Notes: generated from the letters alone by a model not told the origin. A stretch of 17,475 nucleotides of DNA from Candidatus Thorarchaeota archaeon (GCA_003345545.1 PRDH01000029.1:1-17475); one strand, 5' to 3'. Shown: positions 2,814-16,105, numbered from the stretch's first letter. Made by a program: numbers and translations.

Positions 2814-5030
2814 TTGAACGAACCGGGAAATCAAGACACGCCAGAAGATGAGGATCCCGAGAGTCCGCGAGATTCAGATAGACCAATAGAGTTGCTCCCA
2901 AAGTCCCTATTGCCATACCATCCCCGCGTAGGTGACCCTCTCGACCTGCACGTCGACCTCAGCGTTGGAGTAGTCCTTGGGCGTTCGGAGTCATTCCATC
3001 GGAAGTACCACTCTGTAGGTCTGGGCATGGTGGGAGGTGTTACAGAGACCTCTGATGATGTTCTGACCTCACTCATGGGGATGCCCGTGAAACTTGACCT
3101 CATGAGCCCTCATGTCATGTTTGTTGCAGGAAAGAGGGGATCGGGAAAGAGCTATACGCTTGGAATCATTGCTGAGGAAATTGCCCTAGCCATGGAGCGC
3201 CGAGAGATTGAGGTTGCTGCAGTCGTAGTGGACACTGTGGATGTCTTTCGACAGATGGTTGATGCAAATGACGAGCAGGCAGATATTCTCAGGAAGTGGG
3301 GCTATGAGGCAAGGGGATTCCCGGTGAATGTCTACATACCCCGAAGGACATACGTAGGACTCCCTGAAGAGATAAAGAAGAAGGCTCGTCTCTTTCCATT
3401 GTCCATTGGGCCACGAGAGCTCTCCGTTTCAGACTGGGGATACGTACTGGAGAAGGGTGGTACACTCAGTACTGCTATGGAGAACTTGATAGCTGAAACC
3501 TTGGACGCTGTACGAAAGGGATACACCCTCGAGTCCGGAGAGCATATGCAGCTCAAGCGAGATTTCAGCATCACAGATTTGATCAACTGTATCGAGTCCA
3601 ATCCGACCATTGTCGAGTTCTACAAACCTGCTTCAAGGACTGCCATTATCCAGAGGCTACGGCGTGCTGATAGACTAGGAGTCTTCATTCCTGGCGGCAC
3701 AAGCGCTCAGGACTTAGCTGTCGCAGGGCAAATCACAGTCATTGATGTAGCGCCTCTCGGTTCGGATGCCGAGGCCGTGCTCGCAATTCTGACAAACATG
3801 CTGTGCCGTCAAGTCCTGACCTATCGTATGGCTTGGACCGATGAGGGTACGAGTGCGCGGGAAGAACTGCCACCCACCTGGTTAATCATTGATGAGGCCC
3901 ACACCCTTGTACCACGGTCAGGAGCTACCCCTGCCAAGGATGCGATTGTGAGCTATGCAAAGCTTGGACGAAGGTTTGGCTGTAGTCTTGTTCTTTGCAC
4001 ACAGCAACCATCAGCAGTGTCCGATGAAGCAATCTCACAAGCAGATATCATCATCTCTCACTCACTGTCCCATGATGATGACATTAGAGCTCTCCAACAT
4101 CGGGCTCCAGCTGTGATGCCAGATCAATTCCGCGATAAGGCGTTCATCAGCGGTCTTCCGCGAGGCGTTGCCCTGGTCTTCGACCAGACCACTGAGAACA
4201 GGAGGGGTTTCATCATGCAGGTCCGTCCGCGTCTCTCACAGCATGGAGGTACTGATCGACTATCAGGCCTCTTTGAAGCGGTCAAGCTCCTAATGCCAGA
4301 GGAGGCTTCTGAGGAAACAGCGCCAGCCGAAGAGCCCAAGGCGACTGAGCCAATTGAGGGATCAGCGGATGAGTACGAGGGTTCGGAAGAAGCATTTGCT
4401 GAGGAGTTGCCAGAAGTACCACGACCTCCGCTGAAGTTGAGCAAAGAGGACTGGCTGCTTCTCGATGAGTGGATGCGAGACTATGTCAAGACTCTCTTTG
4501 ACCACCAGAAGCAGGGCTTCTCCATTACCGATGAACCGTCGCCTCGCCTTGAGGAACCTGTCGTCGCAGAGGAAGTCATGCCTTTCGAAGTTGAAGTTGA
4601 AAGAATCAGGACTTCGGACTTTGACTCTTCAAGGGTACTCGTGAAAGCATTCGGTCCGGTTTCGAAGGAACTTCTCTCGAAGGCAATAACAAGGAAGGTT
4701 CTGTATAGTCCGGCATCGCATGGTTTTCTCTTCACTTCAGAACATGACATTCGGGATACTATTGTCGTGAACCGCGAAGACAGTGATGCGTCAGATCTCA
4801 TCAGCTTTGCTGCAAATGCAATAGATACAGCTGGCGCAGAGCTTGAGCAGATGATTCATGAAGATGGTTTCACTTTCGTCTGCTACCGACGAGAGGGCGT
4901 TCGCATAGTATTCTCTATTGCTAGCAGCCAGTCGTTATTGAGCTTACCAATTGTTGTCGTTGGTGTCAACCGAAAGTCAGTCATCTCCATTGCCGACAAG
5001 ATACGAGCTGTCCTTCGTGCTCCTAGCTGA
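2814..5030 (+). CDS. HerA/FtsK/VirB4-superfamily P-loop ATPase (DUF87-type) with acidic linker and extra C-terminal domain
   Basis: Walker A PHVMFVAGKRGSGKSYT, VVVD strand, Walker B WLIIDEAH, and the HerA-type LGRRFGCSLVLCTQQPS (Arg-finger region and TQ motif). An E/P-rich linker spans about aa 495-545. Confidence 0.88.
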   Translation: MNEPGNQDTPEDEDPESPRDSDRPIELLPKSLLPYHPRVGDPLDLHVDLSVGVVLGRSESFHRKYHSVGLGMVGGVTETSDDVLTSLMGMPVKLDLMSPHVMFVAGKRGSGKSYTLGIIAEEIALAMERREIEVAAVVVDTVDVFRQMVDANDEQADILRKWGYEARGFPVNVYIPRRTYVGLPEEIKKKARLFPLSIGPRELSVSDWGYVLEKGGTLSTAMENLIAETLDAVRKGYTLESGEHMQLKRDFSITDLINCIESNPTIVEFYKPASRTAIIQRLRRADRLGVFIPGGTSAQDLAVAGQITVIDVAPLGSDAEAVLAILTNMLCRQVLTYRMAWTDEGTSAREELPPTWLIIDEAHTLVPRSGATPAKDAIVSYAKLGRRFGCSLVLCTQQPSAVSDEAISQADIIISHSLSHDDDIRALQHRAPAVMPDQFRDKAFISGLPRGVALVFDQTTENRRGFIMQVRPRLSQHGGTDRLSGLFEAVKLLMPEEASEETAPAEEPKATEPIEGSADEYEGSEEAFAEELPEVPRPPLKLSKEDWLLLDEWMRDYVKTLFDHQKQGFSITDEPSPRLEEPVVAEEVMPFEVEVERIRTSDFDSSRVLVKAFGPVSKELLSKAITRKVLYSPASHGFLFTSEHDIRDTIVVNREDSDASDLISFAANAIDTAGAELEQMIHEDGFTFVCYRREGVRIVFSIASSQSLLSLPIVVVGVNRKSVISIADKIRAVLRAPS

Positions 5031-8979: not shown

Positions 8980-10695
8980 TCATAATGAGAAGTTGACGAA
9001 GATAGTGCCGCCATTCTTCATCTGACCAGTGTATGCGCGATTGTAGGGACCGAATAGATCACTGAAGCCTGAATTGATTGCCCACTCGATCCATGACCAT
9101 GAAGACTCTTGTCCTAGCTTGCCCTCGGCAAACTGACCAAAGGCCCAACTGAGATATCGTTCTAGGTCCATCCTGAGGCCTAGATGAGTTGCTGCTTCCT
9201 CTTTTGATGCGGCAGCGATTCTTGGCTCTATAGTTCTGAGTTCGCTATTGAGTTTGGCGTGACATTCCAGTATCAGATTCTCAAGGTTCTCAAGTTCCTG
9301 ATTCATCTCATCGAACTGGTTCTTCTTTCTGTACTTCGAAACTCTCCCCATGATATTGAACAAGTTCCTTCCCTGAAGAACCGGCATCTCTTTCCCTTCA
9401 AGTGATTTTGCCAATTGCTCATTCCAGGGAGTGTTGAAGTAGACCCGTGGATACTTGACGAACATAGGGAACGGGGCTGAGATTGCTCTCGCACTGGGTA
9501 TCACTTGTGCATAGTATGCTGTCTCGCCGGCACCTCCAACATGCGTGACGATTGGTATTATTGAGTCGATTGCTAATTGTCTGGAGTCTACGCGGAGCGA
9601 GATACTCCGAGCAATATCACCGAGATATGGTGTATCTGCGGATGTTTCAATCTCAATCTTCTCAGAGCAGGATGGGCAGGTTCCAGTGAGAAGGGCAGTA
9701 GTCCCTCTTTCCTCATAGTGAAACTCTGTTCTTGCTTTGTTGCAGGTCTCTCCGGGGCATTCGTAGAAGAATGGCACGTAGTCAGTTCCTCTGAGACCAA
9801 TTCCAGGATTGTATCCTTTCTCCTCGATCAGTGTGGTCACTTCATTGAACATGGCCAGGAATCTCTCCCGGTTCTCACGAGCCAGAAGGAACTCTAGACC
9901 CTCGACAAGAAGGTCTCTGATACCCTCAGAAGATGCTGAGAGCAATGGGATGCCCAAATCGCCTTCTATATTGAACAGCCTGCCCAGTGTTCGTGCTGCC
10001 CATTCTGCCAGAGTTGTGGAGTTGGTGTAACTCCACCGAAGAATCGACAAGGCCTGCTCAAGCCGCTCATCTAGAAGCGTTCTAGAAGATCCCTCTAGTG
10101 CTTTGAACATCGGCCTGTAGGTTGTCCTGATATCGTCCTCAACCTGATTGTACCAGTCTCTCGCTGGTAGGGGGAGCACACTCACTGGTGAGTTCTCATA
10201 GCCCTCAGGCACTGGAATGCTCACGAGTGAGCACTCTGAGCCCAGTACAGGTAGGCGGATATTCGTGAGTTCTGGCTGAACAATGTCATAGTCCGCAAGA
10301 CAGAAGAAGGGTGCAAGGTCAAGTCCTCTCTCAGCGCATAGACTGGCAAGTCGTCTTGCTGTTGCCGCCTTGTTCAGGACATACACAGGACCCCCCAGAA
10401 CCACAGTCTGGTGCGCCGACTCAATGGCTCCGTTCTTCAGAGAGCTGATACTGGATTTGGTGTCTTCTGTGAGGCATCCAAGGTCCCGATTCGAGGAGAT
10501 GAGGGCTCTCTCAAGAAGCTTCATCCGTTCGTCAATATGCCAGAGAGTCTTCTCATACTTCTTCATGAGCTCTGGCACTCGATCACAGATCCCATTCATT
10601 GTGAGCGGCGGACTATCATACAGTGTCTGAGCGAGCTTGGTGTCTTTCCCTTTCCAGACGAAGTCGTGATACACATCATAGACGCTCGGCTTCAC
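8980..10695 (-). CDS. bshC: Bacillithiol biosynthesis cysteine-adding enzyme BshC homolog
   Basis: SAHQTVVLGGPVYVLNKA matches BshC TGQQxGLFxGPLYxxxK. LADYD matches xEDHD. VGGAGETAYYAQV matches GGPGExAYxAQL. It also has a PR motif, a C-terminal coiled coil and GQES for LQER. 571 aa, directly downstream of bshA. Confidence 0.85.
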   Translation of the reverse strand: MKPSVYDVYHDFVWKGKDTKLAQTLYDSPPLTMNGICDRVPELMKKYEKTLWHIDERMKLLERALISSNRDLGCLTEDTKSSISSLKNGAIESAHQTVVLGGPVYVLNKAATARRLASLCAERGLDLAPFFCLADYDIVQPELTNIRLPVLGSECSLVSIPVPEGYENSPVSVLPLPARDWYNQVEDDIRTTYRPMFKALEGSSRTLLDERLEQALSILRWSYTNSTTLAEWAARTLGRLFNIEGDLGIPLLSASSEGIRDLLVEGLEFLLARENRERFLAMFNEVTTLIEEKGYNPGIGLRGTDYVPFFYECPGETCNKARTEFHYEERGTTALLTGTCPSCSEKIEIETSADTPYLGDIARSISLRVDSRQLAIDSIIPIVTHVGGAGETAYYAQVIPSARAISAPFPMFVKYPRVYFNTPWNEQLAKSLEGKEMPVLQGRNLFNIMGRVSKYRKKNQFDEMNQELENLENLILECHAKLNSELRTIEPRIAAASKEEAATHLGLRMDLERYLSWAFGQFAEGKLGQESSWSWIEWAINSGFSDLFGPYNRAYTGQMKNGGTIFVNFSL

Positions 10696-10703
10696 GATAA
10701 TAC

Positions 10704-10715
10704 GTCCTCCTCACC
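10704..10715 (-). promoter_or_regulatory. Shine-Dalgarno site (GGTGAGGAGGA) for bshC overlapping the bshA stop codon
   Basis: The minus strand reads cggTGAggaggacgtattatcGTG, which suggests a translationally coupled bshA-bshC operon. Confidence 0.65.
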
Positions 10716-11877
10716 GTTTGACGACTTCGTTGAACACATTCTCGTACATAGGAACAATCTTGTTGGCGTCAAAAACATTGACACGTTGTCGACCTGCCTT
10801 CGCCAGTCTCTTTCTCTCGCCCTCATTCTCAAGGAGGTGAAGAATTGCCTGCGCAAATTCCTCCTTCTCGAAGCCCTTCGTGACAATTCCATCCTTGTCT
10901 GCACGAACAAGCTCAGGAATTCCGCCTGCAGGTGTTGTAATCACAGGAAGACTACAGGCCATCGCCTCCAAGAGCGTCAGAGGCATTCCCTCAAGTGTCG
11001 AATTGAGCAAGAAGATGTCAGAGGAACACATGATTTCCTGCATGTTGCTTTTCACACCCAAGAGATGTACATTATCACACAGTTTCAGGTCCTCTATTCG
11101 CCGCTCGACGTCAATACGTGTGGGTCCATCGCCTGCAATCACGAGTCTTGCATTTGGGTTATGGTCTACGACAGTGCGCATGATCTCGACAAGTTCAACG
11201 ACACGTTTGACCTTTCGAAAATTGGAGGCGTGAAGCAATATCCTATCCTCTGGTTCTATCTCAAAGGCATCCTTCTCACTCCGCACTGATACACACCCCC
11301 TCTCAACAAGAAGTCTGATCCCTGAAACCTTGGAGAACTGCGTTGTATCAATGAAGTTCGGGATGACATGAATATCCCTCTTGATTCCGAGCTCTTTGTG
11401 AGCTTTGTCTGCTAGGAATTGGGAGACCGCAGTCACAGCATCAGCATTCTCCACGGTGTGCTGGACAACTGGCTTGTATGCAGGATCCTGACCTAGTGTA
11501 TGCACATCAGAGCCATGAAGTGTGACCACATAGGGAATCCCATTGATCTCACGAGCCATATATGCCGCCATCGCATGAGGAATCGCATAGTGCGCATGGA
11601 TGAGGTCCAACCCCGCATCCTTTGCAACCTTGACGATTTTTGATGTGAGCGCCATAGTATAGGGGGGTCCAATCGTGTCAAACAGAGGATAATCAAAGCT
11701 GTCCACAAGGTCGACATGGACGCCCTCTGTCTGCTGCCACATCAATGAGAAGGGTCTCTGATAGGTGATGAAGTGGATTATGTGTCCTTTGTTCGCCAAG
11801 TGTTGGCCGAGTCGGGTTGCAACATGACCGCTACCGCCAAATGAAGGGTAGAGATTCACACCAATTCGCATAGCCAT
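10711..11877 (-). CDS. bshA: N-acetyl-alpha-D-glucosaminyl L-malate synthase BshA (GT4 glycosyltransferase)
   Basis: BshA-diagnostic YPSFGGSGHVATRLG, HFITY, YPLF, HAHYAIPHA, TLHGSD and HASNFRKVKR, plus the GT4 motif EGMPLTLLEAMAC. Confidence 0.92.
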   Translation of the reverse strand: MAMRIGVNLYPSFGGSGHVATRLGQHLANKGHIIHFITYQRPFSLMWQQTEGVHVDLVDSFDYPLFDTIGPPYTMALTSKIVKVAKDAGLDLIHAHYAIPHAMAAYMAREINGIPYVVTLHGSDVHTLGQDPAYKPVVQHTVENADAVTAVSQFLADKAHKELGIKRDIHVIPNFIDTTQFSKVSGIRLLVERGCVSVRSEKDAFEIEPEDRILLHASNFRKVKRVVELVEIMRTVVDHNPNARLVIAGDGPTRIDVERRIEDLKLCDNVHLLGVKSNMQEIMCSSDIFLLNSTLEGMPLTLLEAMACSLPVITTPAGGIPELVRADKDGIVTKGFEKEEFAQAILHLLENEGERKRLAKAGRQRVNVFDANKIVPMYENVFNEVVKR

Positions 11878-11974: not shown

Positions 11975-12628
11975 ATGAGCTCTATCCTTGTTGTGGTTGC
12001 ACACCCCGATGACGAGAGTCTGGGTGCCGGCGGTACGATACGAAAACATGCTGACATGGGGATTCCTGTCGACGTGCACTGTATGACGGGCAATGGAATA
12101 AGGAACGACGAAATGAAGTCTGCATGCGCCCAGCTTGGTGTGCGGAACCTCTATCTAAGCGAGCGCGATGACTTTGCCATTGACATGAGCCTTCGAAATG
12201 AAGTCGTCGGAGCGATTCTCAAATCGCGTCCGAAGATAGTGATAACTCACTTCTCTGGAGACTACAATGTGAATCATCAACACTGCGCACAGATAGTCTT
12301 CGATGCTGTTGAATGGGCATCCCACACAACACTCTTTGATGATGCACACCGCGTTGAAAGAATCTACAACATGGAGATCAACACCTTGATTTCCCGACCC
12401 CACGTGTATGTTGATATTTCGGACTCGTTTGAGTATGCTTTCAACGCGATCAAAGAACACAAGTCACAGATTGAGAAAGCCGATCTCTTCTATGAGAAGC
12501 TCTACGATGCGAGGACACGTCTTCGCGGAGTCCAAGCGAAATGCGAGCGTGCTGAGGCCTTTTCGATTACCCTTCCTGAACATGCTGGACCGTTCTATAG
12601 AGAAAACAGCGTTGAAAGTCTTGTGTGA
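11975..12628 (+). CDS. bshB: PIG-L/LmbE-family deacetylase, probable BshB (GlcNAc-malate deacetylase)
   Basis: ILVVVAHPDDESLGAGGTI metal motif, RxxE...A...LG, HKSQ and RG...AEAF. Divergent from bshA across a 97-bp gap. Confidence 0.8.
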   Translation: MSSILVVVAHPDDESLGAGGTIRKHADMGIPVDVHCMTGNGIRNDEMKSACAQLGVRNLYLSERDDFAIDMSLRNEVVGAILKSRPKIVITHFSGDYNVNHQHCAQIVFDAVEWASHTTLFDDAHRVERIYNMEINTLISRPHVYVDISDSFEYAFNAIKEHKSQIEKADLFYEKLYDARTRLRGVQAKCERAEAFSITLPEHAGPFYRENSVESLV

Positions 12629-12646: not shown

Positions 12647-13033
12647 TTAGTCTGCCTTTCTCTTTCTGGCAGCTAGAAGTTGCTTGAGTTCGCCCATCAT
12701 GCTCATGCCTCCCCCTGGCGAGGGCGGTGGAGCTGTTGGGGCTCTTGCCATGCCAGCAATTGGCTGTCCTCCGGCTGCTGAGGGTCCTGCTGATATGGTT
12801 GCGCCACCAGAGGCGCGGCTCGAGAGAGAATCAATCCTTGATTCCAAAGCGCTGACTTGCGATTGGAGCTGAGCTGTTGTTGCCTGTAGATTGCTAATGG
12901 CTTCTGTGAGCTTAGTAGTGATGATACTCACAACTTCCCCGAGCTGGCGAATCTTCTGTGTATTTGGATCCTGAAGTGCCCACTCGAACTCCCCCATCAC
13001 AGCATCTTCAAGTTCCTTCTTCTCTTTGCTCAT
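12647..13033 (-). CDS. Small protein: coiled coil + Gly/Ala/Pro-rich linker + C-terminal basic amphipathic helix; candidate actin-regulator-like protein
   Basis: 128-aa ORF with its own GGAG site and TATA. Heptads span about aa 27-74, followed by APTAPPPSP and a terminal GGGMSMMGELKQLLAARKRKAD. The CDS call is solid; the function is inference. Confidence 0.8.
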   Translation of the reverse strand: MSKEKKELEDAVMGEFEWALQDPNTQKIRQLGEVVSIITTKLTEAISNLQATTAQLQSQVSALESRIDSLSSRASGGATISAGPSAAGGQPIAGMARAPTAPPPSPGGGMSMMGELKQLLAARKRKAD

Positions 13034-13076
13034 TGGTCTAGCTCCATCAACTGTCTGAAGAGGTCGCGGAATCCGC

Positions 13077-13088
13077 TATAAATCTTGT
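13077..13088 (-). promoter_or_regulatory. Putative TATA box (TTTATA) with purine-rich BRE for the 128-aa gene
   Basis: The minus strand reads acaagaTTTATAgc 44-55 nt upstream of ATG 13033. Confidence 0.55.
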
Positions 13089-13111
13089 CTGCATTATCGA
13101 AACAAATCATG

Positions 13112-14488
13112 TCATATCGATTTGATTGTCTTCTCAACAGCAAGCTTCGCTGTATTCGATACTTTCTTGACCAGCGCCTCTGTGGGACCCTCACACGTGA
13201 TTCTTATCACCGGTTCTGTACCTGACGGTCGTACTAGGACCCATCCCTCTTTTAGAGTAATCCCAATGCCGTCCACTGTTAGAACCTGCACGACATTCTC
13301 CAGTGCCTTAGGGAGCACCTCTGCAAGAGCTTCCATTACCTGTGCCTTCTTCTCATTTGGACATTTCAGTTTGGTCTTCACTAGAGGATATGCTGGAATG
13401 CCTGAGATCAGCTCTCCAAGACTCTTTCCTGTTCTTGCCATTTTTTCAAGAATCCTGCAGGCTGTGAGGAATGGCTCCGGCGCAAGGTGGAACTCTGGGA
13501 GAATGAACACACCACAGGCCTCGCCACCCATGACTGCATCAGTTTCCTTTACTTTGACTGCAACTTGGATATCCCCCACAGGTGTTCGAATTATCTTGCC
13601 GCCTCTTTTCTTGACGGTTTCGTCAAGCACCAATGAGCTATCCACAGTGGTGACCAAAGTCCCCCCCTTCGTAGTGCCAAGATAGTCTTGAGCGAGAAGC
13701 GCAATCGTTCTATCTCCTCTGACTACCTCGCCCTTCTCAGTCACAAACACCACCCTATCAGCATCACCATCATGAGCGATACCAAGGTCTGCACCAATCT
13801 CCTTCACCATCTGAATGAGATCACCAAGGGAGCTCTCATCTGGTTCAGAAACTCTTCCTGGAAAGTGTCCGTCCGGCTGACTGTTTATCGTGACGATCTT
13901 GCTAGCAAGTCTCTGCATGAGATATGGAGTGAGAACAGATGCTGCGCCGTTACCCGGGTCAACTACTATTGTGAATGACTTCGACCTTATCAGCTCTGCA
14001 TCGCACCTTGCTAGGATTGCCTCGATGTGTTCGTCAGCAGCGCTTTCTGTTGTGGACTCCTTTCCCAGCTGATTCCAGGGTGCAACCTTGAATTTCCTTG
14101 ATACATAGATCCGCTCAATCTTCTCTTCCTCTTCGGGTGTAAAGCCCATACTATTCTTAGACCAGAATTTTACTCCCGTATACTCTGGTGGGTTGTGCGA
14201 TGCAGTAACCATGACGCCCGCATCGAGTCTTCTGTTCATCACTGTGAAGGCCAGCGTAGGTGTCGGGATGATGCCTGTTCTGACTACGTTCACCCCTGTG
14301 GATAGCAAACCAGCAGAGAGCGCATCGGCGACCATGAGCCCTGTGGTTCTCGTGTCTCGTGCTAGGAGGACCGTTCCTCCACCCAGCAGTGTTCCGAGTG
14401 CTTTTCCTAAGTCCAATGCCATCTCAAGGTCGAACTCTTTTCCGTAGACCTTTCGCACGCCCGTTGTTCCGAAGAGTCTGTCCGCCAT
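13112..14488 (-). CDS. glmM: Phosphoglucosamine mutase / phosphomannomutase-phosphoglucomutase (alpha-D-phosphohexomutase)
   Basis: RLFGTTGVR, phosphoserine loop VTASHNP, metal loop DGDADR, GGEACG and VRPSGTEP. Sugar specificity is not certain. The start could be 14506. Confidence 0.85.
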   Translation of the reverse strand: MADRLFGTTGVRKVYGKEFDLEMALDLGKALGTLLGGGTVLLARDTRTTGLMVADALSAGLLSTGVNVVRTGIIPTPTLAFTVMNRRLDAGVMVTASHNPPEYTGVKFWSKNSMGFTPEEEEKIERIYVSRKFKVAPWNQLGKESTTESAADEHIEAILARCDAELIRSKSFTIVVDPGNGAASVLTPYLMQRLASKIVTINSQPDGHFPGRVSEPDESSLGDLIQMVKEIGADLGIAHDGDADRVVFVTEKGEVVRGDRTIALLAQDYLGTTKGGTLVTTVDSSLVLDETVKKRGGKIIRTPVGDIQVAVKVKETDAVMGGEACGVFILPEFHLAPEPFLTACRILEKMARTGKSLGELISGIPAYPLVKTKLKCPNEKKAQVMEALAEVLPKALENVVQVLTVDGIGITLKEGWVLVRPSGTEPVIRITCEGPTEALVKKVSNTAKLAVEKTIKSI

Positions 14489-14714
14489 GGAGCTCACAGG
14501 TACCATGTCTGTATGCTCTAGAGAAAAAGATACCTGAACAATACATTACAGTGAAATTGGGTCGTTATGCGATTGTCACTCGTCCTCAAACCAATGATCG
14601 AGCACCCCAAGGAGTTCAATAGGTTACTGCGCGAATTCGTTTCTTGGGTTGAGGAAGAGGGTTAGCTCACCGTCTCTCACCTTTGTTCTGTTCTGGTCTC
14701 GTTGCTCAATATAT

Positions 14715-14729: not shown

Positions 14730-14884
14730 GTGCCATCAGTAACTTAGGCTTCGAATGCGCAACCACTGTTCAGGCCGATAGACTGCATGGGGATCTTTCA
14801 TGAATACACACAGAGACTCTTCATATGTCAATGGCGTAGCCACGTATGCATTCCACATCGATTCTACAGCTGGAGGACTGCGCT

Positions 14885-15433
14885 ATGAGTAGCACCTATG
14901 ACTTCTTGTTCAAAATCGTGGTCTTAGGAGAGGGCGCAGTGGGAAAGACAGCCATAGTCACCCGCTTTTCTCACGGATTCTTCAGGACTGATTACAAGAC
15001 TACTATTGGCTCCCAGTTTGCTGTCAAGAATGTTGAAATTGTAAAGTCGGAGCGCGAAAAGGTGACCGTGAAACTGCAAATCTGGGATGTTGCAGGGCAG
15101 TCTCGGTTTCAGATTCTCAGACCCATGTACTATAGGGGTTCGAGCGGTGGGATACTCGTCTATGATGTGACGAGACGAAGAACCTTCATCGTGCTCCAGG
15201 AGTGGCTAGAGGAACTCCACAAGGCGCTTGGAAAGGATATACCACTGATTCTAGTAGCGAACAAGACCGATCTTCCCGACCGCGTGGTTGAACCATCAGA
15301 GGGACGCGAATTCGCGGACAGCCGTAGCATGCCATATGTCGAGTCGAGCGCAAAGACTGGAGAAGGAATCATCGATATCTTTGAGCAGCTTGCTAGGGTC
15401 CTCGTCGCTGATCGTGAGCAGAAGGAAATGTAG
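14885..15433 (+). CDS. Rab-like Ras-superfamily small GTPase (eukaryotic signature protein)
   Basis: G1 GEGAVGKT, G2 TIG, G3 WDVAGQ, G4 NKTD and G5 SSAK. Rab-family motifs KLQIW, YYRGS and LVYDVT, and a YDFLFKIVVLG N-terminus. GGAGGA at 14872-14877 supports ATG 14885. Confidence 0.95.
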   Translation: MSSTYDFLFKIVVLGEGAVGKTAIVTRFSHGFFRTDYKTTIGSQFAVKNVEIVKSEREKVTVKLQIWDVAGQSRFQILRPMYYRGSSGGILVYDVTRRRTFIVLQEWLEELHKALGKDIPLILVANKTDLPDRVVEPSEGREFADSRSMPYVESSAKTGEGIIDIFEQLARVLVADREQKEM

Positions 15434-15520
15434 CTCCACCATTTCTGGCAAGGAGTGTGTCATCACTTCTACCAGAGAGCTAATTCATAACAGTAAGAAT
15501 GATTGATGTGACGTGCAACA

Positions 15521-16105
15521 ATGACAGACCCCGATGAATCCTATCCCGTAAACACCATCCCTGCACTCGCCTGGGCACTGGACCTGTACTTCAAAGCTGG
15601 AGGTGCTTTCAAGGAAGGCGGTGTAGTCGAGCTTGTGTTTCCTGCTGGCAATCACAAGGAAGTCATGAGAAAGAAGGGAGAGCATGAGAATATCCTCTGG
15701 ATGTCAAAGAAGAATCTCTATGTGAGAGCTCGGTGCAACTACGATAAGGGATGCAGCTTCAACTCTGAGAGAATCGACGGCGGAAACAGAGAGGCTCTGA
15801 AAGGTCTGTCATGGGACCAATCAAATGACCGTGCCTTCTTCATCGCCGTGCGAAAATGGTTGATTCGATTGAAGTTCGACTTTGTCACTCTCATCCGTGC
15901 TCTGAATACAATGTGCGACAAACGGGTTGAGTTACCGCTGACCACCAAGTATGGCCGCTCGTTCAAGAAGTTCGATGAATATCGCAAGAACAAGTGGCCC
16001 GAAGACGCAACACCCGACAACAGGGATAGATTTCTCGAAGAGGTTCTCGTTCGGGTGTCTTTCTGGATACAATCTGCAGCCCAAGTCAACGCTCTCAAGG
16101 ACTGA
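15521..16105 (+). CDS. Hypothetical soluble protein (194 aa)
   Basis: Clean ORF with globular-like composition, co-directional with its neighbours. No motif recognised. Confidence 0.8.
   Translation: MTDPDESYPVNTIPALAWALDLYFKAGGAFKEGGVVELVFPAGNHKEVMRKKGEHENILWMSKKNLYVRARCNYDKGCSFNSERIDGGNREALKGLSWDQSNDRAFFIAVRKWLIRLKFDFVTLIRALNTMCDKRVELPLTTKYGRSFKKFDEYRKNKWPEDATPDNRDRFLEEVLVRVSFWIQSAAQVNALKD

Follow-up and report, generated by a model that had tools for sequence, protein, structure and literature searches.

The stretch of DNA analysed here (GCA_003345545.1 PRDH01000029.1:1-17475, 17,475 nucleotides; hereafter the window) belongs to a Candidatus Thorarchaeota archaeon of the Asgard group (Thorarchaeota-type), whose assembly of 2.69 Mb is 93% complete. 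On its minus strand lies a small gene, P0001, to whose product neither Pfam nor NCBIfam assigns a family. The features of the gene and its surroundings are listed in Table 1. The end of the encoded protein had drawn attention in a preliminary description made from the window sequence, and ORF translation confirmed both the position and the peptide given there: residues 107 to 128 read GGGMSMMGELKQLLAARKRKAD and are encoded exactly by 12650-12715 on the minus strand.

Table 1. Features of the P0001 gene and of its surroundings in the window
Feature	Position	Strand	Basis or remark
BshC-like	8980-10695	(-)	bacillithiol-type set
GT4/BshA-like	10711-11877	(-)	bacillithiol-type set
PIG-L/BshB-like	11975-12628	(+)	bacillithiol-type set
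128-aa gene P0001 with stop	12647-13033	(-)	ORF list, translation
End motif, aa 107-128: Gly run, amphipathic helix, basic cluster	12650-12715	(-)	
Disordered Gly/Ala/Pro-rich arm, aa 77-110	12704-12805	(-)	AF2, pLDDT <50
Helical N-terminal part, aa 3-75	12809-13027	(-)	AF2, pLDDT 77-91
Invariant block, aa 7-50	12884-13015	(-)	alignment of 26 Thorarchaeota sequences
Spacer, 78 nt, from stop of upstream GlmM-like gene (TGA 13112-13114) to ATG	13034-13111	(-)	
GlmM-like phosphoglucosamine mutase	13112-14506	(-)	
Ras-family small GTPase	14846-15433	(+)	Pfam Ras 4e-49
194-aa ORF, no Pfam match	15521-16105	(+)	follows Ras-family GTPase

In the spacer upstream of the gene, ATTTATAG can be read at 13076-13083 and an apparent GGAG element at 13042-13045, 8 nt ahead of the ATG. 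In two metatranscriptomes, RNA contigs (X7 and X8) span the flanking genes only. Further away in the window, an ORF of 738 aa for a HerA/DUF87-type ATPase occupies 2814-5030.

The genomic setting is well kept among Thorarchaeota: in 21 to 22 of 22 loci the family gene is found between the GlmM-like mutase and PIG-L deacetylase genes, beside the bacillithiol-type cluster. The pair formed by the Ras-family GTPase gene and the 194-aa ORF (14846-16105) is divergent from the pair of mutase and family gene. Ras-like GTPase genes directly adjoin the family gene in three other loci (L024, L025 and L028), and in the window the GTPase gene is two genes away. In Loki-type loci the upstream neighbour is an Elf1-like zinc-ribbon gene, and hexapeptide-repeat genes lie downstream. 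The upstream ORF, of 205-214 aa, lies on the same strand (L036:4550-5167 (-), L038:3103-3720 (+) and similar), and the Elf1-like zinc ribbon was found in it in the two Loki-type genomes checked (L036 and L. ossiferum, L038). No actin gene was present within ±4 kb of the family gene in 25 loci. The host genome does carry actin and gelsolin genes; since all Asgard genomes checked contain actin, including those of 1.4 Mb and one that lacks the family, co-occurrence cannot discriminate between partners.

A pan-Asgard family of stalk, arm and end helix

Homologues of P0001 numbered 279 at E≤0.01, nearly all of them labelled as Thorarchaeota, and the few names present were generic or plainly wrong. 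A family profile made from 33 members matched 273 of 400 Asgard genomes, with E values between 1e-40 and 1e-64 for the window's own family and between 1e-8 and 1e-18 for many others, and the matches covered nearly the full profile length. The end-motif profile alone matched 345 of the 400 genomes at E≤1. P0001 itself scored E 3.6e-61 with the family profile and E 2.7e-8 with the end-motif profile, and in its own genome the end motif occurs only once. Relatives of the same build, whose arm is rich in Pro, Gly, Ala and Gln, were found in about 25 further lineages, among them 1.4-Mb genomes and closed genomes such as that of Candidatus Lokiarchaeum ossiferum B35 (CP104013.1). The N-terminal signature of the family, a (D/x)P..K(I/V)..LGE(V/I)(V/I) helix followed by a coiled coil, is present in P0001. 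Judged from its sequence, P0001 is thus the Thorarchaeota stand-alone member of an undescribed pan-Asgard family composed of a stalk, an arm and an end helix; no published description of the family turned up in literature searches.

Larger collections were also searched. A scan of 1.8 billion representatives with the single protein returned 14 relatives only, the ESM Atlas gave unnamed archaeal clusters only for the whole protein and no match for the tail, and Foldseek against the PDB gave no match. In a set of 5.8 billion proteins, an EMILIN collagen-like match, taken as a candidate for a fused longer form, proved spurious, and poly-Pro words crowded the candidates. The only other long form in this set was P0136, in which the GlmM-like gene reads through into the family gene; this JGI metagenome protein of 472 aa may be a genuine fusion or may reflect a frameshift or an assembly artefact. 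Tandem family paralogues adjoin each other in two genomes (L028, G124:C202 85-447 and 599-973; L029, G123:C457), which suggests possible hetero-oligomers.

For the N-terminal part, AF2 with the family alignment predicted a helix at residues 3-21, a turn at D22-P23-N24 and a long helix at 25-75 that would form a coiled-coil stalk. In the 26 Thorarchaeota sequences aligned, the invariant block at residues 7-50 reads ELE..EFEWAL.DPN..KIRQLGEV.SIITTKL.EAI. Profile matches in the PDB were generic coiled coils only, many of them trimeric (sigma-1, trimeric adhesins, gp26, HA2 and designed trimers), with HSBP1 among them at E 1.8. These coiled-coil-type matches give a hint that the stalk may oligomerise.

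The arm varies in length and sequence in the alignments, and only P91, P102 and G88/E90/I92 are kept. A second semi-conserved arm motif, (G)GEPIPTM(A/E)K, is seen in Thorarchaeota members and is degenerate in P0001 (GGQPIAGMAR; aa ~82-95, window 12760-12790). The preliminary description had placed the end helix directly after a proline-rich segment, where it expected profilin-actin to be handed off. A short segment, APTAPPPSP, does precede the helix, but its longest run is of three prolines, and many Thorarchaeota relatives have PKPAGAP in its place. Loki-type relatives carry one to three runs of 4-7 prolines just ahead of the tail. Asgard profilins are apparently not regulated by polyproline, a Heimdallarchaeota profilin being the exception among those tested (PMC8410842). 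Because of this and of the absence of any proline run longer than three, a profilin hand-off is unlikely for P0001.

Larger proteins of three other Asgard genomes carry the end motif at their extreme C-terminus. Ten larger proteins were checked: eight are Arf/Gtr1-RagA-like GTPases of 397-475 aa and one is a HEAT and winged-helix (wHTH) protein. Positions 3-123 of the 126 positions of the family profile align to their last ~105 residues (i-E 3.6e-16 to 3e-08), and therefore the whole unit of stalk, arm and tail was fused rather than the tail alone. What is new here is that the whole module ends Arf/RagA-like GTPases and a HEAT protein of other Asgard lineages, and as far as alignments tell the module is mobile between protein families. 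AF2 of one GTPase fusion, run on a shallow alignment, gave pLDDT values of 28-63 for the module and no sign of its docking back onto the G domain. In Thorarchaeota, in L. ossiferum and in a second closed Loki-type genome (G135), the motif is found on the stand-alone family only.

Fusions were located at L050, L054, L059, L051, L063, L062, L065, L068 and L060, with three GTPases in tandem in G170:C10, and each fusion GTPase bears a confident helical N-terminal extension of ~110 aa. The module was also seen in an internal rather than C-terminal position in proteins of 310-705 aa without Pfam domains (L053:628-2742 (+), L056:1102-2115 (-) and L049:1312-2241 (-)).

The end helix and its likeness to the F-actin-binding helix of VASP

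A C-terminal helix had been proposed from the sequence, and AF2 does predict one at residues 112-127 (12653-12700; pLDDT about 66), after the disorder at 77-110. The basic cluster stands 2 residues before the stop, the tail ending in ...RKRKAD. In the 26 Thorarchaeota sequences G107-G109, M112, M113, G114, E115, L116, K117, L119-A122, R123 and K126 are invariant, and the tail block reads GGG..MMGELK.LLAAR..K. Three of these residues, L116, L120 and R123, are also invariant in 33 relatives, and L116/K117 are invariant across Asgard classes, so that the M/L/L and basic positions emphasised in the preliminary description are kept among homologues. Over all Asgard lineages the tail consensus is xPxSxRxxxMGELKxLFxKRR, and a 24-residue end motif, [NSG]P.S.R..(I/L/M)(M/Q).ELK.L(F/L).(K/R)(R/K)(R/K), lies ~10 residues or less from the stop. 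In a helical-wheel projection, columns of low entropy (E, L, I/L, R, L, F/L, M, K) group at 0-200 degrees, and those at 220-340 degrees vary freely. The conserved face is thus made up of I/M, M, E, L, K, L and F/L, followed by R/K; this one-faced conservation, which includes the charged residues E, K and R, fits surface docking on a specific partner. Loki-type tails carry in addition a run of 2-6 Asp right after the basic cluster (L038:3866-4321 (+), L031 and L036), which Thorarchaeota tails lack.

The family tails have a net charge of +1 to +4, a hydrophobic moment of 0.22-0.54 and a mean hydrophobicity of 0.06-0.31, and their lipid-binding discriminant is 0.74-1.68. Such values raise the question of a membrane-targeting amphipathic basic helix, similar in function to those of MinD and FtsA or to the anchors of eukaryotic small GTPases, made of a hypervariable region and a polybasic stretch, by which the protein would be a membrane-tethered coiled-coil stalk. 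The terminal position of the helix behind a flexible linker would suit this function, as would the charge, the moment and the discriminant, which amounts to 1.34-1.68 in several members. The same module also ends Arf/RagA-like GTPases, which need a membrane anchor and for which lipidation is not expected here. However, lipid-binding helices usually conserve character and not identity, whereas the family tail is conserved at the level of residues, including an invariant Glu in mid-helix and a P-x-S-x-R cap. Further, its mean hydrophobicity is low, and the conserved stalk within the module would be superfluous for an anchor. The residue-level conservation, with its Glu, argues against a role in lipid binding alone, and membrane targeting by the tail has a rather low probability.

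The preliminary description had likened the tail to the F-actin-binding (FAB) motif of Ena/VASP proteins and to WH2-related helices. In human VASP, a WH2-like site (GAB, residues 223-239) is followed by the FAB (259-278) and a tetramerising coil (343-380) (PMC10340426). The human FAB sequence given in the preliminary description agrees letter for letter with residues 259-278 as printed in that paper. Local alignment (BLOSUM62) of the P0001 tail with the FAB scored 40, compared with 17.7±4.1 for 5000 shuffles (z 5.5, p about 4e-4), and comprised eight identities (M113, E115, L120, A121, R123, R125, K126 and A127) and one gap. Tails of other family members gave z values of 2.7-9.9 over shuffles. 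Likewise, the pan-Asgard tail profile scored the FAB at 11.8 bits, above all of 2000 shuffled FABs (best 10.4 bits).

The likeness has a ceiling. When the FAB was aligned to the six-frame translation of the host genome (2.72 M residues), one unrelated segment reached 42 and the window tail 40. Scores of the 33 Thor-type members ranged from 26 to 64 (median 43), and 17 of them exceeded 42; members outside this group scored 23-37. The FAB likeness thus exceeds what composition would give, yet for P0001 it equals the best chance match in one genome, so that the proposed resemblance holds against shuffled sequences but not at the scale of a genome. It is largely a Thorarchaeota trait, brought about by the Gly run and ARRRKA. 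Its fading outside Thorarchaeota argues for convergence over shared descent; an amphipathic-basic helix reached independently seems a better description of the likeness than an inherited FAB.

A relation to WH2 found no backing. The Pfam WH2 model (PF02205) left 12650-12715 unmatched at E≤10 in a genome-wide scan, and the VASP GAB scored like shuffled sequences, with z about 0 (from -1.0 to 1.4 over the family tails). In addition, hmmscan of 14 tails returned no family, tail profiles run against the PDB matched designed coiled coils only and no VASP, WASP or WAVE chain, and Pfam detected neither WH1/EVH1 nor VASP_tetra on P0001. The P0001 family is not a member of Ena/VASP.

These results bear on the view that the tail is a VASP-FAB- or WH2-related helix and the protein a miniature Ena/VASP- or WASP-like factor that passes profilin-actin to the filament. 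In its favour, the FAB is recognised above shuffled controls both by single tails and by the family profile, poly-Pro runs (PPPP or PPPPP) stand ahead of the tail in Loki-type relatives, coil, arm and tail recall the parts of EVH2, although in a different order, and the host genome encodes actin and gelsolins. The view is nevertheless unlikely: any GAB/WH2 likeness, an EVH1 and a VASP tetramerisation domain are missing, P0001 has only PPP and many Thorarchaeota relatives lack proline runs altogether, an unrelated peptide of the same genome outscores the tail and the likeness weakens outside Thorarchaeota, and Asgard profilins other than the Heimdall one are reported as not polyproline-regulated (PMC8410842). 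The presumed L. ossiferum orthologue was also not enriched in a published Lokiactin co-immunoprecipitation (see below), and the module is carried by GTPases as well.

Candidate partners and comparison with known systems

A probable, if by no means certain, reading is that the end helix serves as the partner-docking helix of a modular and probably oligomeric adaptor. Oligomerisation of the stalk would display several end helices on flexible arms; the hydrophobic face, flanked by the invariant Glu and Lys and by the basic cluster, would bind a very conserved cellular partner, and the module would thereby tether its carrier protein to that partner.

Actin may be sought among the partners in published data. 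In L. ossiferum, the proteins enriched by co-immunoprecipitation (co-IP) of Lokiactin included a profilin, five gelsolins and an Arf GTPase (PMC13716822; preprint 10.1101/2025.11.30.690169). The family member of this organism is encoded at L038:3866-4321 (+), which is CP104013.1 2628799-2629254. The GNAMCCOK identifiers of the published table run along the chromosome, and genes were mapped to them by monoisotopic mass. The upstream Elf1-like neighbour (24.013 kDa monoisotopic) corresponds to GNAMCCOK_02218 (24.01 kDa), which lies inside the expected index range, and because of this fit of mass and index we infer that the family orthologue is GNAMCCOK_02219. Applied to the published Arf, the same mapping gave an exact match (329 aa, 38.10 kDa). 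GNAMCCOK_02062, which had come up as orthologue by average mass, was rejected as the mass of the next gene mismatched.

In the proteome sheet, the putative orthologue GNAMCCOK_02219 has a mean log2 of 18.47 and ranks at roughly 400-460, and it was absent among the co-IP rows listed, which run from log2 +10 down to -0.96. It thus appears to be made, but not to be enriched with Lokiactin under the co-IP conditions. The input of the co-IP was a sonicated and centrifuged supernatant (PMC13716822), and therefore a binder of low affinity on the filament side could have been lost. The Arf that was co-immunoprecipitated does not carry the module. GNAMCCOK_02218, the presumed Elf1-like product of the upstream gene, was itself enriched with Lokiactin (log2 1.36, adjusted p 0.034).

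Taken singly, an actin filament or monomer, bound in the manner of the VASP FAB or of arcadin-2, is the leading candidate for the partner, albeit a doubtful one. Actin is the most specific candidate because of the FAB-like chemistry of the tail, the need for a very conserved partner and the precedent of arcadin-2, whose C-terminal helix sits behind an unstructured linker in the groove of an actin (PMC5173319). Further points speak for it: about half of the Thor-type members (17 of 33) outscore the best unrelated peptide of the host genome, actin and gelsolin genes are present in that genome, and the presumed L. ossiferum orthologue ranks among the abundant proteins of its proteome. Against it stand the lack of database-level similarity to any actin-binding family, the FAB score of P0001 at the chance ceiling of its genome, the much weaker FAB likeness outside Thorarchaeota, the absence of an actin gene within ±4 kb in 25 loci, the co-IP, in which profilin and gelsolins were enriched and the presumed orthologue was not, and the Arf that was recovered without the module. 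Given the GTPase fusions and the negative co-IP, a membrane anchor and another conserved protein both stay in play.

Docking of the tail on another conserved protein, for example a small GTPase, its regulators or a hub, is a tentative possibility of somewhat greater weight; the stand-alone copy would then compete or, via its stalk, co-assemble with the GTPase-fused versions. The fusions to Arf/RagA-like GTPases and to the HEAT and wHTH protein are consistent with this, as are the Ras-like GTPase genes next to or near the family gene, the tandem paralogues of two genomes and the restriction of conservation to one side of the helix, as expected of a docking surface. On the other hand, the module of the modelled fusion had low pLDDT values and showed no sign of docking back, in a model based on a shallow alignment, and Thorarchaeota and the two cultured Loki-type genomes have the motif on the stand-alone family only. 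Actin, the membrane and another conserved protein together leave a remainder of the probability unassigned.

In the literature consulted, only profilins and gelsolins are named as actin regulators of Asgard archaea, and formins and Ena/VASP filament polymerases are treated as features of the more complex migration machinery of eukaryotes (PMC13716822). A small family present in most of the Asgard genomes searched, with an abundant presumed L. ossiferum orthologue, a probably oligomerising stalk, a flexible arm that is often rich in poly-Pro and a nearly invariant terminal helix, is a concrete candidate for a further actin regulator. That it represents a third class beside profilins and gelsolins, a VASP-like oligomer that binds, bundles or elongates filaments and grips Lokiactin with its end helix, seems unlikely at present. 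If this were true, a FAB-type helix, together with the poly-Pro tracts of Loki-type members, would predate eukaryotes in their archaeal relatives, and in some lineages this helix would be coupled directly to Arf/Rag-like GTPases. If, instead, the partner of the end helix were the membrane or a GTPase-linked hub, the family would show how small GTPases and adaptors of Asgard archaea reach their sites without a lipid anchor, a matter relevant to how membrane and cytoskeleton came to be coupled in eukaryotes.

Compared with known systems, the docking adaptor proposed here shares several traits with the EVH2 part of Ena/VASP proteins: a Gly run precedes a hydrophobic and acidic amphipathic stretch and RRRKA-type basic residues, with FAB scores of 40-64 in Thor-type members, and a coil that may oligomerise is combined with a proline-containing region in one protein. 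Unlike in EVH2, the order is reversed, with the coil first and the tail last. EVH1, a GAB/WH2-like site and a VASP_tetra match are missing from the Asgard family, the proline region of P0001 does not reach the length of a classical profilin site, and the similarity, weak outside Thorarchaeota, stays far from significance at database level. With WH2 and the V-C-A region of WASP-family proteins, the Asgard tail has in common a short amphipathic helix with basic residues behind it, which in Loki-type relatives comes after proline-rich sequence, and the acidic run that ends Loki-type tails recalls that of V-C-A. It differs in lacking an LKKT/V-type motif and a Trp in the acidic end.

Arcadin-2 of Pyrobaculum (PDB 5LY3), a regulator of crenactin, ends in a small conserved helix that an unstructured, non-conserved linker holds apart from its core, and this helix alone binds the hydrophobic groove of crenactin (PMC5173319). 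The Asgard family has the same layout, with predicted disorder at 77-110 and a helix at 112-127, and would follow the same logic. Arcadin-2 relies on a Trp, whereas no Trp is present in any Asgard tail aligned, and it is encoded beside crenactin, unlike the family gene, which is not beside actin in the 25 loci. The likeness is one of layout, and no relation in sequence could be shown: with 17 residues, the peptide chain of the arcadin-2 structure is shorter than the 20 residues at which the PDB sequence library starts.

The C-terminal peptide of FtsZ and the targeting helices of FtsA and MinD follow a general plan in which a folded or oligomeric core is joined by a variable disordered linker to a conserved terminal helix, short in length, by which it docks on partners or the membrane. 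In the Asgard family, the core is a coiled coil and not a polymerising enzyme, the tail is unrelated in sequence and the module is mobile between protein families. What it has in common with these tethers is the plan itself: a core that is probably oligomeric, a variable disordered linker and a conserved terminal helix.
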